This document shows positions 16,206 to 27,184 of a stretch of 64,000 nt of DNA, piece after piece. This DNA comes from a virus: positions 96,331 through 160,330 of IMG/VR virus record IMGVR_UViG_3300025646_005482. One strand, written 5' to 3'. The position numbers were made by a program, and so were the translations under genes. The notes beneath the pieces are model-generated. The model ran no database searches. It was not told the origin of the DNA and saw only the letters and a program-made list of their open reading frames with translations. The first letter of the stretch is position 1. Each line of letters opens with the position of its first letter.

Positions 16206-17228
16206 ATGGCCGTATCATCACAAAAATTTGACACACTCGATGGATTAGTTGTCACGGGCCCGATGGAAATTGGCGGCAATGTGGCTGTCGACACGAACGT
16301 CCTTTTTGTAGACACTGTAAACAATCGTGTAGGTATCAATAAAACTCCAACTGTTGCGTTAGATGTTAGTGGTGCTGTAGCTATTACGAGCGGAAATATT
16401 ACTGGCCTAACTAATCTTGGAGCTGGTAATCTAAGTCTAAACACTGATACTATTACTGGTACAGCAGGTATAACACTAGACGCAGTGGGAGATATTTCTC
16501 TAGATGCTGATGGTGCCGACATTCTGTTAAAGGACGCTGGTACACAATACGGCGCTCTCACTAATTCTTCTGGCAATCTTGTAGTAAAGTCAGGTACTAC
16601 TACCGCGATGACACTTACATCGGCAGGTGGAGTTGTATTTTCTGATAACTTAGGTATATCAAACGGCAAACGTATCGATTTCGGTACGGTCATGGACATG
16701 ACTGCAGACTCACAGGGTGTTTTATTAAATGCAAACACATATCATCAAGGGTCTATCGTCAGTTATTTTGGCGGAGTAAAAGATACAAATACGTATCTAC
16801 AATTTAATGGTGCTGATTCTTTCCAAATAACAACTGGCGGAACAGTTAGAATGACCGTTAATAATAGCGGTGTGACTATTCCAGGGGCCTTGTTATTCGA
16901 TAGTGTTGCATCAGATCAACCATATTATGAAACAATCAATGCTCCTGCTGGACTAACATTTAATTTGAATAATGGATCAGCGTTTACTAAATCTGGTGGA
17001 GGAAGCGGAGGAACTGTAGTGTTTACCATGCCTTCAAGTCCCGGTACAAATAGTTTTGCATGGACAATTAAATTTATAAACTCTGGCGCATTGACTTGGC
17101 CAGCTAGTGTCAAGTGGTCTGAAGGAGTTCAACCGCCAGAATCTTCTGGAACTGATATATATAGTTTTGTAACGTACGACGGTGGAACCAACATCTATGG
17201 CTCACTCGCAGTTAGAAACGCGTCGTAA
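16206..17228 (+). CDS. Short fibre protein with shared C-terminal WP..V.WSEG..PP..GTDIYSF domain
   Basis: VDTNVLFVDTVNNRVGI fibre motif; C-terminus paralogous to those of the genes at 25844 and 27491. Confidence 0.7.
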   Translation: MAVSSQKFDTLDGLVVTGPMEIGGNVAVDTNVLFVDTVNNRVGINKTPTVALDVSGAVAITSGNITGLTNLGAGNLSLNTDTITGTAGITLDAVGDISLDADGADILLKDAGTQYGALTNSSGNLVVKSGTTTAMTLTSAGGVVFSDNLGISNGKRIDFGTVMDMTADSQGVLLNANTYHQGSIVSYFGGVKDTNTYLQFNGADSFQITTGGTVRMTVNNSGVTIPGALLFDSVASDQPYYETINAPAGLTFNLNNGSAFTKSGGGSGGTVVFTMPSSPGTNSFAWTIKFINSGALTWPASVKWSEGVQPPESSGTDIYSFVTYDGGTNIYGSLAVRNAS

Positions 17229-17238
17229 GGGGTAAGAT

Positions 17239-19116
17239 ATGGCTGGTGCTGGTGGTAAAGGGTTTTTAGATAGAACTTGGGCTGCAACATATGATCAGAC
17301 CTCAGCGGGTACTGCTCCTGGTTCTGACCTCAATGTAACATACGGCAAACAAATAATAGAAGTATCAGCAAGAGGTGGAACGGCTAGCGCTCCTATCTTG
17401 CAACCTGCTTATTCCGTCACAACCAATTATCCTGCTCGCGATTACACACAAAGCGCTTATCAGGTCACAACATTTTATGCAGATGAGATAACTAATTATC
17501 CTTCTCGTATCTTTACTCAGCCTGCATATTCAGTAATTACAAACTATCCGTCACGTAATGTTGCTGATCAACCAGCGTATGCAGTAATTACTAATTATCC
17601 TAGTCGTTCTACTAATCAACCTGCATATTCAGTAATTACAAACTATCCGTCTCGTGGTAACCCTGCGCAGCCTGCGTATAGTGTGACTACAAACTATCCG
17701 AGTCGAGCCGTACCTGATCAGCCAGCATATTCAGTAACGACTAACTATCCGAGTCGAGCCGTACCTGATCAGCCAGCATATTCAGTAACGACTAACTATC
17801 CAGCTCGTGCGACACCTGATCAACCAGCGTATGGTGTCACAACTAACTATCCTGCACGGCTATATCAACAGGCTTCTTATTCAAGTATTGTATATTATCC
17901 TGCTAGAACTAATTATCAGAGTTATCCTGCACGAACGACTAACTATCCGTCGCGCAACACACCATCACAGCCCGCATATACTACAAACTATCCTGCGCGA
18001 ACGACTAACTATCCAGCTCGAGCTGTACCGAATCAGCCCTCTTATACTGCAAGTTTTCCAGCGCGTTTCGTGCCTAATCAGCCTGCATACTCGCAAAATT
18101 TCCAAAACTTTAACATCTATATGGCATACTTGTGGGGGGTTATATATTATCCATCGCGTACGGTACCAAACCAGCCTGCGTATGTTGCTAGTTATCCAGC
18201 ACGTAACGTACCATCACAGCCCGGATATAGTGTAACTCAACCAGCATATAGTGTTTCTCATCCGGCCCGTGCTAATCCTGCACAGCCAGCATATAGTGTT
18301 ACTCAACCCGGTTATCAGGGTTCTGCGTATCAACCAGGATATTCTAATGTTACTAATTATCCTGCTAGAAATTATTATCAGAATGCATACTCTGTAACGA
18401 CAGCTTATCCGTCACGTGCTAATCCTGCGCAACCAGCATATAGTGTTACAACTAACTATCCGGCCCGTGCTAATCCTGCGCAACCAGCATATAGTGTGAC
18501 TACAAACTATCCATCACGAGCTAATCCTGCACAGCCAGCATATAGTGTAACTACAAACTATCCATCTCGTGCGACACCTGATCAACCAGCGTATAGTGTC
18601 ACGACTAACTATCCCTCTCGTAATTATTCAGAGGCAGCGTATAGTGTCACGACTAACTATCCATCGCGAGCTGTACCAAACCAACCTGCGTACTCTGTAG
18701 TGACAAATTATCCGTCACGTGCTACTACACAGCCTACATATTCTGTTACTCAACCAGCATATCAGGTTGTAACATATTATCCATCGCGAGTATATCAACA
18801 AGCAGCGTACAGTGTGATCACAAACTATCCATCTCGAGTAACAGCTGGTACCAGTGGTACAGCTACTACTTTGCAAATGACTGGCAAAGATGGTACTACA
18901 TATTTGTTGACAGCTCCAGGCACTGCGACGAATGTAGCTAACTACGCTGCTCCTCCCGTGGCTACTGCAGTATATGCAACTCTTTACGCGCCTGTGGTAA
19001 AAGAGCTAGCTAATGATCCTAATGAGGCAGATGTCACATTGGGTACAAGTCCTGCTGGTCAAACTAATCCGACATATCGGCCATTTGTCAATGTGAAGTA
19101 TGACGGCAACCCATAA
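17239..19116 (+). CDS. Pro/Tyr-rich repeat protein with mirror-symmetric arms (putative hairpin fibre or adhesin)
   Basis: 25 units related to QPAYSVTTNYPSR between a 54-aa N-terminal and a 92-aa C-terminal segment. SD-like AAGGGG upstream. Confidence 0.85.
   Translation: MAGAGGKGFLDRTWAATYDQTSAGTAPGSDLNVTYGKQIIEVSARGGTASAPILQPAYSVTTNYPARDYTQSAYQVTTFYADEITNYPSRIFTQPAYSVITNYPSRNVADQPAYAVITNYPSRSTNQPAYSVITNYPSRGNPAQPAYSVTTNYPSRAVPDQPAYSVTTNYPSRAVPDQPAYSVTTNYPARATPDQPAYGVTTNYPARLYQQASYSSIVYYPARTNYQSYPARTTNYPSRNTPSQPAYTTNYPARTTNYPARAVPNQPSYTASFPARFVPNQPAYSQNFQNFNIYMAYLWGVIYYPSRTVPNQPAYVASYPARNVPSQPGYSVTQPAYSVSHPARANPAQPAYSVTQPGYQGSAYQPGYSNVTNYPARNYYQNAYSVTTAYPSRANPAQPAYSVTTNYPARANPAQPAYSVTTNYPSRANPAQPAYSVTTNYPSRATPDQPAYSVTTNYPSRNYSEAAYSVTTNYPSRAVPNQPAYSVVTNYPSRATTQPTYSVTQPAYQVVTYYPSRVYQQAAYSVITNYPSRVTAGTSGTATTLQMTGKDGTTYLLTAPGTATNVANYAAPPVATAVYATLYAPVVKELANDPNEADVTLGTSPAGQTNPTYRPFVNVKYDGNP
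17401..18837 (+). repeat. Coding repeat array (mostly 48-51 bp units): arm 1 17401-18078, centre 18079-18159, arm 2 18160-18837
   Basis: Parsed from the translation; includes a perfect 51-bp tandem duplication at 17692-17801. Confidence 0.9.
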
Positions 19117-19121
19117 CGTCA

Positions 19122-19129
19122 TATAAATA
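19122..19129 (+). promoter_or_regulatory. T4-type late promoter for the oxygenase/lysis cluster
   Basis: TATAAATA 30 nt upstream of ATG 19160, with SD AAGGTG. Confidence 0.8.
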
Positions 19130-19159: not shown

Positions 19160-19786
19160 ATGTTTCAATTACCATACTCTCTTGTTCCTCCATACGAACT
19201 TCCCCATTTTGGTGTCATGGAAAAAGTGTTCGACGAAGAAGAAGTCGAACGCATTCGTTTCTATGAAAAAATTCTAGATTTTCAAGATGCTACGATTGTT
19301 GGGCAACAACAAGGCGATGAAGCTTCGCAAGAACAAACAGCCAGAATTGCAAAAAATGCAAGTATTCCACATGACGAAAATACTGTTTGGTTGTGGAATA
19401 AGATAGCGCATTTATCAGCAAAAGCAAATTATGATTTATTTTTATACGACATTTCTTTTCTCGAAGATTTAAGTTATACTGTCTACATAGGTACAGATAA
19501 CGGACACTATACAAAACACATAGATACTTCTTTATTTGGTTATCGCAGATACGATAGAAAAATATCTGGTATTTTAGTGTTGTCTGATCCAGATGAATAT
19601 GAAGGAGGCACTCTGAGTATTGATGTATACGGTGGCGCGCCTGAAGACAGATGGACGAGAATAGAAAAACCGAATAAAGGTGATTTAATTTTCTTTGATT
19701 CTAATTTCATTCACACGGTAGAACCAGTGACTAGTGGTAAACGTCAAGTGTTAGTATTTTGGGTACACGGTAAACAAAAACTATGA
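19160..19786 (+). CDS. 2OG-Fe(II) oxygenase (prolyl 4-hydroxylase/PKHD-like)
   Basis: HID iron motif, RKISGILVLSDPDEYEGG and distal H..V.PVTSGKR..LV.W. Confidence 0.9.
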   Translation: MFQLPYSLVPPYELPHFGVMEKVFDEEEVERIRFYEKILDFQDATIVGQQQGDEASQEQTARIAKNASIPHDENTVWLWNKIAHLSAKANYDLFLYDISFLEDLSYTVYIGTDNGHYTKHIDTSLFGYRRYDRKISGILVLSDPDEYEGGTLSIDVYGGAPEDRWTRIEKPNKGDLIFFDSNFIHTVEPVTSGKRQVLVFWVHGKQKL

Positions 19787-25110: not shown

Positions 25111-25844
25111 TGGCTCTTACCAAAATTGGTATCCTTAGAAATTTTCTATCCACTGGTATCGATGATAATGCAACCAGTACTGCACTTACGATCGATGCCA
25201 ATGAAAATGCCACGTTCGCGAATGGTGTTACTGCGTCGTCTTTTTCTGGTGATGGTTCTGCACTCACAGGTATCGTATCTCTACCTGATGCTATCGAAGT
25301 TGAATCAGGCGCTGCTGCCAATTCATTCATCATACAAGCAGATGGCGATGTAGTTTTAACTTCGAATCTATCTGCTGTATATGTAACGGCCAATTTGAAT
25401 GCCACTACTGTATCAGTTAATGATTTAACCGTCAGTAACACATATACTCATGGAACCGGCAACTACGTTCAAAATCGTTATGTGTTGCATGGAACGACGA
25501 CCAATAATACCGAAACAGAAATTTTTACTATTAATTCAAATGGTAGAGTCCCTGTTGATACTAATACAACTGTATTTTATGAGGCATCGTTTGCAGCACG
25601 ACGAACAGATGCTACTGGTGAATCTGCTGCTTGGCACCTTAAAGGTGTAGCTGACAATTTTAGCGGTACGGTCGCTGATGTAGGCAACGTTTATGAGATC
25701 GCCGTTGCGCAAGATGATATAAATCTTGCGGTAGATATACGAGCAGATAATACTAATGATGCTATAGGAGTGTTTGTCACTGGCGCGACTAGTAAAAATT
25801 ATAGTTGGTCGGTTGTTCTAACAACGGTTGAGGTATCACAATAA
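25110..25844 (+). CDS. Fibre-like structural protein
   Basis: STGIDDNATSTALTID and ASSFSGDGSALTG marine fibre motifs. Confidence 0.6.
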   Translation: MALTKIGILRNFLSTGIDDNATSTALTIDANENATFANGVTASSFSGDGSALTGIVSLPDAIEVESGAAANSFIIQADGDVVLTSNLSAVYVTANLNATTVSVNDLTVSNTYTHGTGNYVQNRYVLHGTTTNNTETEIFTINSNGRVPVDTNTTVFYEASFAARRTDATGESAAWHLKGVADNFSGTVADVGNVYEIAVAQDDINLAVDIRADNTNDAIGVFVTGATSKNYSWSVVLTTVEVSQ

Positions 25845-27184
25845 TGGCAAGGCGCAGACGAAGTTTCTTCTTTGATAACATCAACAAAAAATTGTTGACG
25901 GATACAACAAAGAATACAAAAGATGTCAAAGATGACGTAGATGCTGCTGTAGTCGCTAATAACCATATTATGACTAAAGAAGAAATTCAGGATGAAATCT
26001 CTTCAACTTTGACAACTGATGGTTATGCTACACAGACTTATGTAAATTCTACAGTATCTACTTCGAATACTGCGTTAAAATCATACGTTGATACTAACTT
26101 CTCTACTACTACGGCGATGAATACCGCCATCGCATCATCAAATACTGCGATGAAGACATACGTCGATAATGAAGTTGCAAGTGTAGATCTATCATCATAT
26201 TCTACAACTATTCAGATGAACACAGCCATCGCATCATCAAATACTGCGATGAAAACGTATGTTGATAATGAAGTCGCGGGCATTGTCGATTCTGCGCCTG
26301 GAACATTAAATACTCTTAACGAGCTCGCTGCTGCGCTGGGTGATGATGCTAACTTCTCTACTACTACAGCAACATCGTTGGGTAATAGACTAAGAATAGA
26401 TACTGCTGCGCAAGGTTTGACGGGTACACAACAAACAAATGCGTTGACTAATCTTGGTATTACTGCATCTCTTACTGAGCTCAATAAGCTCGACGGTGTT
26501 ACTGCATCTACTACAGAACTGAATTATTTAGATGGTGTAACAAGTAATATTCAAACACAGTTAGACGGTAAACAAGCTTCAGGTAGTTATTTAACAGGTA
26601 ACCAAACAATTACATTGTCGGGAGATGTCAGTGGTTCAGGAACTACGAGCATTGTTGTTACAGTCGCAGACGATTCTCACAATCATATTATTTCAAATGT
26701 AGATGGCTTGCAGGCAGCACTTGATGCAAGAGTTACATCTCTTGCAGATCTCAGCATAACTGCAACAGCGACAGAACTCAATTATGTCGATGGTGTAACG
26801 TCTAATATTCAAACACAGTTAAACGCTAAGGCAAATTTAAGTGGAGCAACGTTTACAGGCGGAGTGGTTGCCTTACACTATATAGAGACTAAAGTAACCG
26901 CTGCATCAGGAACTGGTACAAAGACATTTAATTTAAATAGTGGTTCATCATTCGAATATACTGGCACAGGCGCTGGATTTACTGCAGCATTTAGTAATGT
27001 ACCCGGAACAAATACAATTTCTTGGACATTAAAAACAACTAATAGCGGCACTATTACTTGGCCAGCAGGAGTGAATTGGTCAGAAGGTGTAACACCACCT
27101 CCTTCAAGTGGCACCGATATCTATAGTTTCATAAGTATAGCCGGAACAATTTATGGCTCGCTAGCCATGAGAAACGCGAGTTAA
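25844..27184 (+). CDS. Tail fibre protein with shared C-terminal domain
   Basis: APGTLNTLNELAAALGDDANF, repeated SNTAMKTYVD and TELNY.DGVTSNIQTQL, LSGDVSGS..VADDSHNH, ending WSEG..PP..GTDIYSF. Confidence 0.75.
   Translation: MARRRRSFFFDNINKKLLTDTTKNTKDVKDDVDAAVVANNHIMTKEEIQDEISSTLTTDGYATQTYVNSTVSTSNTALKSYVDTNFSTTTAMNTAIASSNTAMKTYVDNEVASVDLSSYSTTIQMNTAIASSNTAMKTYVDNEVAGIVDSAPGTLNTLNELAAALGDDANFSTTTATSLGNRLRIDTAAQGLTGTQQTNALTNLGITASLTELNKLDGVTASTTELNYLDGVTSNIQTQLDGKQASGSYLTGNQTITLSGDVSGSGTTSIVVTVADDSHNHIISNVDGLQAALDARVTSLADLSITATATELNYVDGVTSNIQTQLNAKANLSGATFTGGVVALHYIETKVTAASGTGTKTFNLNSGSSFEYTGTGAGFTAAFSNVPGTNTISWTLKTTNSGTITWPAGVNWSEGVTPPPSSGTDIYSFISIAGTIYGSLAMRNAS

Follow-up and report, generated by a model that had tools for sequence, protein, structure and literature searches.

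The window analysed here is a 64,000-nucleotide (nt) stretch of DNA from an uncultured T4-like phage. Its tail-fibre module contains a gene, here termed the hairpin gene, that encodes a 625-amino-acid (aa) protein consisting largely of tandem tyrosine- and proline-containing units. An earlier note on this DNA had drawn attention to 19 residues, encoded at positions 18091-18147, as an aromatic stretch situated at the mirror centre of the repeat array. The layout of the gene and its protein is as follows, all on the + strand; the evidence for each feature closes its line.

17239..19116, +, hairpin gene encoding the 625-aa repeat protein; list of open reading frames (ORFs), a family without a Pfam or PHROG model, homologues with conserved N and C ends
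17239..17397, +, residues 1-53, N-terminal portion of the predicted base beta-sandwich (MAGAGGKGFLDRTW...YGKQIIEV.ARGG); kept across the family, AlphaFold2
17398..18090, +, residues 54-284, left (outgoing) arm of 7- to 23-aa Tyr/Pro units, e.g. QPAYSVTTNYPSRAVPD; unit parse, tandem repeat finder, mirror register
17761..17862, +, residues 175-208, 34 aa (two units) lacking in relatives L008 and L009, with an equal insertion in the right arm; alignment and gap list
18091..18147, +, residues 285-303, unique aromatic/hydrophobic apex SQNFQNFNIYMAYLWGVIY, with the register centre at Y294 (18118-18120); self-similarity, register, divergence, composition
18148..18837, +, residues 304-533, right (returning) arm, units e.g. 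ANPAQPAYSVTTNYPSR; repeat finder, unit parse, register
18385..18486, +, residues 383-416, 34 aa lacking in L008 and L009 (the i+j=588 mirror of 175-208 is 380-413); alignment and gap list
18838..19113, +, residues 534-625, C-terminal portion of the predicted base beta-sandwich (VTAG..G...DGTTY..TAPG...FVNVKYDGNP); kept across the family, AlphaFold2

A repeat protein with mirrored arms

The array (residues 54-533, ~480 aa) comprises about 28 Tyr/Pro units, mostly of 15-17 aa and with the consensus QPAYSVTTNYPSRAVPD, and is flanked by non-repeat ends. The left arm is homogenised on AVPD linkers (17517-17852) and the right arm on ANPA linkers (18406-18720). The arms therefore grow by local tandem duplication yet stay equal in unit number. 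A 142-aa ORF in frame 2 of the + strand (17807-18235) that overlaps the array arises from the repeat DNA as a by-product and lacks support as a gene.

Positions 18091-18147 are in frame with the ORF and encode residues 285-303. These sit in one 31-aa unit (277-307) that starts and ends in a unit-like manner (FVPNQPAY...YYPSR) and carries a unique insert. A self-similarity scan of residues 54-533 displays one long run of low similarity, 289-302 (QNFNIYMAYLWGVI), and the DNA of the tip does not resemble that of the repeats (local score 9-11, compared with 29 for a control repeat unit). Eleven of the 19 residues are F, Y, W, I, L, M or V, compared with 25% in the remaining array (hypergeometric P = 0.003), and the sole Trp and sole Met of the array are both located here. 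The earlier description of the segment as the only non-repeat stretch of the array, rich in F/Y/W/I/L/M, is borne out by these results. That the tip is a degenerate or frameshifted repeat was considered and rejected: its DNA is unlike the repeats, the other frames contain no repeat-like peptides and a homologous tip is present in L008 and L009. A run of six G residues (TGGGGGGTT, 18133-18138) is found in tip codons W299-G300-V301, where L008 and L009 read Y-G-Q. It could be a slippage-prone site; the run is short and may be due to chance.

Symmetry of the array was assessed by counting aromatic-aromatic pairs (i,j) at each value of i+j. There are 33 such pairs at i+j=588, and the next best value has 16. 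As 588/2 is 294, the midpoint of residues 285-303, the segment does lie at the mirror centre, as had been claimed. When unit order was shuffled 5000 times within each arm, a procedure that preserves composition and local spacing, the maximum averaged 15.3 pairs (sd 1.7, highest 24) and none of the 5000 shuffles reached 33. A gapped fold-back alignment of 233 pairs, in which only 2 gaps are needed, locates the turn at 292-296.

At i+j=588 each PAY tyrosine of one arm is opposite an NY(P) tyrosine of the other. The register persists across the irregular units of 16 and 23 aa close to the base, and also in a degenerate zone in which unit lengths are unequal (left 9, 7, 15, 7, 15; right 15, 22, 33). 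The pairs in this zone are Y214-Y374, Y220-Y368, Y229-Y359, Y236-Y352, Y247-H341, Y251-Y337 and Y258-Y330, and nearer the centre are Y269-Y319, F273-Y315, Y284-Y304 and F291-Y297. A shorter relative, P0001 (352 aa), has its own best aromatic register, at i+j=315 (16 pairs vs 9). A DNA palindrome was rejected as the source of symmetry, there being only two chance 15-nt inverted repeats in the DNA. The symmetry lies in spacing and pairing, not in the DNA, and since direct duplication cannot yield mirrored spacing either, it points to a structural constraint, namely antiparallel pairing of the arms.

AlphaFold2 monomer predictions were obtained for the window protein and for P0001, with arm pairing read from strand patterns and sequence statistics rather than from coordinates. 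For the window protein the model is confident for about residues 15-92 and 499-625 only; the predicted local distance difference test score (pLDDT) per 10-residue block is 56-90 across residues 11-80 and 62-89 across residues 501-620. In both proteins, confidence is confined to the base and to ~40 residues of either arm next to it. Seven strand pairs are predicted at the base, and all are mirrored at i+j=588: 53-55/533-535, 58-64/524-530, 67-71/517-521, 74-80/508-514, 83-87/501-505, 90-92/496-498 and 98-100/488-490. The strands of P0001 are likewise mirrored, at i+j=315.

The N and C ends are predicted to form one compact base domain. Structure matches are to compact beta-sandwich or jelly-roll domains, in which about 95-120 residues from the N and C parts jointly are aligned, with Z 5-6.7. 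The search tool states a noise level of about Z 7-8, below which these matches fall, and because the scores are this low no specific fold family can be named for the base. Jelly-roll heads to which the predicted base aligns over about 95-120 residues include TNF/C1q-like domains (best Z 6.2-6.7 over 95-115 residues), the fibre C-terminal domains of Bdellovibrio Bd1399 and Bd2133, and a baseplate protein of mycobacteriophage Douge. The base domain of the hairpin protein differs from these heads in being split by the ~480-aa insertion. A split glycine-rich-domain fold (PF21722-like) was also considered for the base and is unsupported in Pfam at E ≤ 5.

Relatives, arm length and the central segment

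The family is small: a set of 1.84 billion representative proteins contains 22 clusters of it, and a further 6 viral and 28 metagenome loci were found. A scan of viral contigs with the single protein gave no relative; relatives were found with an alignment-based scan. The window protein matches no Pfam-A or PHROG family at E ≤ 0.01, and 23 family members display scattered chance matches only, at E ≤ 5. A sequence profile search of the PDB returned no phage fibre, with chance matches to designed Cake propeller proteins only, and Foldseek against BFVD and a search of the ESM Atlas gave no usable match. Megablast and tblastn searches of a phage genome database with the gene gave no match, to which the low-complexity filter or exclusion of the gene's own record may contribute. 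A literature search on the repeat motif found no relevant paper.

Full-length members span 179 aa (L031) to 973 aa (L022), the extreme lengths such as 179 aa being uncertain in that metagenome assembly may collapse repeats. The 179-aa member, at 457-993 of a 1144-bp contig, has both end domains, an array of about 40 aa and the usual order of fibre C end, hairpin gene and oxygenase. Such a short protein is either naturally minimal or the result of an assembly in which the repeats collapsed. The fold-back apices of P0002, L015 and L025 are unreliable (arm ratios 1.5-4.1) and were left out as evidence.

Changes in length are matched between the arms. Compared with L008 and L009, which are 78-79% identical to it, the window protein has 34 additional residues at 175-208 and 34 more at 383-416, at mirrored positions; an alternative pairwise alignment divides the indel at 175-208 into 17+17 aa. 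L018 differs from L019 by +32 aa at -188..-156 and +32 aa at +154..+184 relative to the apex, and L030 differs from L023 by +9 at -156..-148 and +9 at +148..+156. In L014 (782 aa, identical to L003) 20 left units of 15 aa and 21 right units of 14 aa surround one unique 35-aa aromatic unit; the two arms have been homogenised separately, with unit counts kept equal. In the two closest pairs of unequal length, the unpaired indels are central in each case: L019 and L024 (90-93% identical) are distinguished by one indel of 4 aa or more, +11 aa, that adjoins the apex, and L024 and L025 (89%) by a pair of 4-aa indels in mid-array, at a distance of 22-40 residues from the computed apex, the position of which is unreliable in L025. 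From these alignments, paired indels appear to be mirrored across the arms and unpaired ones to occur only near the apex.

The central segment differs from the arms in its rate of change. Residues 285-303 are 44-50% identical to those of L008 and L009, compared with 78-82% for the arms and 75-80% for the end domains, and this is the lowest value of 519 19-aa windows. Of 12 related pairs, 8 have the apex window among their most divergent. It had been suggested that the tip may be hypervariable, a description that holds insofar as variability exceeds that of the stem at medium evolutionary distance and fails between very close relatives such as L008 and L009. The tips of the latter two are homologous to that of the window protein (S.QF-SF.IYMGALYGQLF), and all three share F288, F291, I293, Y294, M295, L298 and G300; the hydrophobic pattern is preserved while the exact residues vary.

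Distant members have unrelated centres of like character, including YNFYFGG (L013), GYTFGQVFFPTYQTF (L014), YGHKGGPWGPFY (L023), VVWIWRTGEVEGAWFPVW (L027) and GYYPYVGYVSSPLYF (P0009). Averaged over the family, Phe and Trp together make up 8.3% of residues at the apex vs 2.9% in the arms, and Gly 8.2% vs 3.2%. On these comparisons, the tip can be regarded as a family-wide feature that is variable relative to the stem, not strictly hypervariable and not indispensable.

A proposed fold-back fibre and alternative explanations

It is proposed, with moderate confidence, that the protein is a fold-back fibre with its base on the virion and its apex as an exposed distal end that contacts the host. The first ~53 and the last ~92 residues would clamp into one beta-sandwich base, and the ~480 intervening residues would make up an outgoing and a returning arm, antiparallel and equal in length. 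The arms would zip via facing 7-residue strands (YSVTTNY vs YNTTVSY), with Tyr-Tyr pairs at their bounds and Pro-rich linkers between them. The 19 residues would cap the turn at the point farthest from the base; the retained Gly probably aids the turn, and the apex may additionally fix the register of arms built from near-identical repeats. The suggestion in the earlier note that the segment is the distal tip of a hairpin is supported by the mirror register, the mirrored AlphaFold2 base strands, co-folding of the N and C ends and the mirrored indels of equal length.

We infer that the base is the virion-docking end and that the exposed apex touches the host surface. The end domains are the best-conserved parts of the protein (98% between L008 and L009), which fits docking on a conserved virion partner, probably the fibre encoded just upstream. 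The tip would be free to change because it has no pairing partner.

Host contact by the apex is suggested by analogy with the T4 long tail fibre. The C-terminal part of T4 gp37 (PDB 2XGF, a structure credited to Bartual and colleagues in 2010) reportedly has a collar-needle-head organisation with fold-back topology. Both proteins belong to T4-like phage fibres; in both, for the hairpin protein on computational evidence, the chain reaches a distal apex and returns, so that the flanks meet proximally. The variable apex is rich in Trp, Tyr and Gly and determines specificity in gp37, and the hairpin gene likewise lies in a tail-fibre module. In the gp37 tip, W936, G938, T939, Y949 and Y953 govern binding to lipopolysaccharide (LPS) and OmpC (PMC6957217, PMC5221442). 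Receptor binding by the tip of the hairpin protein is plausible on this analogy.

There are also differences. The iron-binding HxH motifs of the gp37 needle axis are not found in the hairpin protein, the array of which (54-533) has one His (H341), and no sequence or fold match between gp37 and the 625-aa protein was found; gp37 is absent from the structure-search and Foldseek match lists, for which the hairpin part of the queried models was of low confidence. The arms are 230-240 aa of tandem Tyr/Pro repeats, whereas the gp37 needle is about 100 aa and non-repetitive. The base is a predicted split beta-sandwich from both chain termini. The gp37 needle is a six-stranded homotrimer; the predictions for the 625-aa protein are of the monomer. 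The fold-back receptor-binding needle of gp37 is the nearest analogue, without detectable homology.

The gp38-type adhesins of T2-, T6- and S16-like phages offer a second comparison. Their gene, too, is directly 3' of a fibre gene, in their case that of the distal fibre, and they also have a conserved attachment part and variable distal loops rich in Gly and aromatic residues. They differ in being compact proteins rather than a long repeat hairpin, and no sequence similarity to them was detected.

Several observations weigh against an exposed, host-contacting apex. AlphaFold2 pLDDT is about 30 for residues 93-498, so that the apex itself is without a confident model, and the same is true of the P0001 apex. 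The aromatic cap could be buried between subunits. The tips of L008 and L009 are 89% identical, as against 92% for the proteins overall, and a loop under no constraint would diverge fast too. In P0001, the closest short relative, the centre is an ordinary PSRAVPSQPA linker, which shows that a special cap is not essential to the fold.

A serious alternative, though on balance unlikely, is that the segment is a structural cap and does not bind the host: a hydrophobic beta-hairpin or mini-core that nucleates folding, sets the register of the arms or joins hairpins at the far end. Near-identical 17-aa units could easily pair one unit out of step, and with a unique centre there would be one defined starting point. 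The hydrophobic pattern shared with L008 and L009 despite different residues is in keeping with such a role, and other apices resemble tight aromatic hairpins with Gly turns, e.g. VVWIW-RTGEVEG-AWFPVW (L027) and YGHKGGPWGPFY (L023). However, the arms of P0001 pair without a special centre, the periodicity is already interrupted by the irregular 16- and 23-aa units near the base, and conservation would be expected of a purely structural nucleus, yet the apex is the most divergent window.

Pairing might instead occur between chains. In an antiparallel domain-swapped homodimer, residue i would pair with 588-i of the other chain and the segment would be the midpoint of a two-headed rod, on the two-fold axis. 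Such a dimer would equally be expected to show the i+j register and mirroring of both indels and AlphaFold2 strands, and monomer predictions cannot discriminate between a domain swap and a fold-back. A paired midpoint, however, gives no reason for a centre that is unique, Gly-enriched and tolerant of indels, features that favour a turn; turn-like motifs (KGGPWGP, RTGEVEG, YFGG) recur at the centre, and one-sided indels next to it, such as the +11 aa that separates L019 from L024, would produce unmatched bulges on both chains. The dimer is accordingly judged improbable.

The segment had also been put forward as a possible membrane-inserting loop, and penetration of the host outer membrane by a hydrophobic apex is very improbable. 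On the Wimley-White scale, no window of the protein favours the interface more strongly than residues 291-303 (-6.5 kcal/mol), and among the weak top Foldseek matches of the P0001 model are lysenin, epsilon toxin and aerolysin in their pore forms, with long beta-hairpins (E 0.1-1). These matches are not significant (E 0.1 or worse, rmsd above 30 Å). The hydrophobic run is about 12 residues only, and no transmembrane-like hydropathy is seen: the highest 19-residue Kyte-Doolittle mean, 1.12, is located in the C-terminal domain rather than the tip. The arms, of about 230 aa, are polar and Pro-rich without amphipathic alternation, unlike the amphipathic membrane-spanning hairpins of aerolysin/lysenin-type pores, and tips elsewhere in the family are polar, charged or Gly-rich.

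Equally little credence can be given to a hinge or kink in a parallel, non-folding fibre with the N and C domains at opposite ends, as in adenovirus and reovirus shafts. Parallel trimeric shafts typically have short repeats in which Pro is conserved, and the AlphaFold2 middle is without a confident model. The triple beta-spirals of the adenovirus fibre and reovirus sigma1 resemble the present array in having repeats of ~15-20 aa with conserved Pro/Gly and hydrophobic positions in a thin attachment fibre. Those shafts are parallel trimers with termini at opposite ends, whereas here the spacing is mirrored and the termini are predicted to co-fold. Mirrored spacing is not producible by direct duplication, nor is the DNA palindromic, and the mirror register, the mirrored indels and N/C co-folding are all contrary to a parallel arrangement. 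The 625-aa protein is not a triple beta-spiral shaft.

Returning to the fold-back fibre, a distal variable apex is a known kind of fibre feature; the scaffold is unusual and apparently undescribed. It is tentatively suggested, as a broader and rather doubtful proposition, that the family represents a class of phage fibre not described before: a beta-ribbon that pairs with itself and has mirror-symmetric arms tunable from ~20 to ~415 residues in matched steps, a fast-evolving aromatic/Gly apex for host contact, and repeats whose Pro/Tyr residues may be modified by the adjoining oxygenase. If so, this small family would represent a new way to build a thin viral attachment fibre, with one chain self-paired over hundreds of residues. 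Repeat number would set fibre length, and selection would force equal indels in each arm, an unusually clean case of compensatory length evolution. The flagged segment would be the protein's one pairing-free and fastest-changing site, and the first place to seek host specificity in uncultured T4-like phages. The protein is also a hard test case for structure predictors, its middle 400 residues being unmodelled.

Genomic context

The source of the window is a 160-kb IMG/VR virus record that encodes T4-type baseplate wedge subunit, tail fibre, tail sheath, portal and major capsid proteins. The major capsid protein shares about 60% identity with its counterparts in Stenotrophomonas phage DLP_6, Sinorhizobium phages phiM12 and phiN3, and Pelagibacter phage HTVC008M. 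Wherever a locus has sufficient flanking sequence, the gene order is fixed: a phrog_644 protein, a fibre-like protein, the hairpin protein and a prolyl-4-hydroxylase-type 2OG-Fe(II) oxygenase. The immediate neighbours in the window are listed here.

16206..17228, +, fibre-like gene, 340 aa, directly 5' of the hairpin gene wherever flanking sequence suffices; PHROG tail-fibre matches at the C end
19160..19786, +, prolyl-4-hydroxylase-type 2OG-Fe(II) oxygenase gene; PF13640, E 6e-15

The 340-aa fibre-like protein is a candidate carrier of the hairpin protein. A second fibre of 446 aa is encoded at 25844-27184; the two have different shafts and a common C-terminal domain (57% identity over ~105 aa, E 1e-31), and of the two, only the fibre gene at 16206-17228 precedes a hairpin gene.

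The oxygenase gene is 25-61 nt 3' of the hairpin gene in every locus that reaches that far (loci L002-L034), often with a DUF6065 gene next. Its product might modify Pro (or Tyr) residues of the repeats. In the 43-nt gap between the hairpin and oxygenase genes of the window, the sequence TATAAATA, the T4 late-promoter consensus, is found at 19122-19129.

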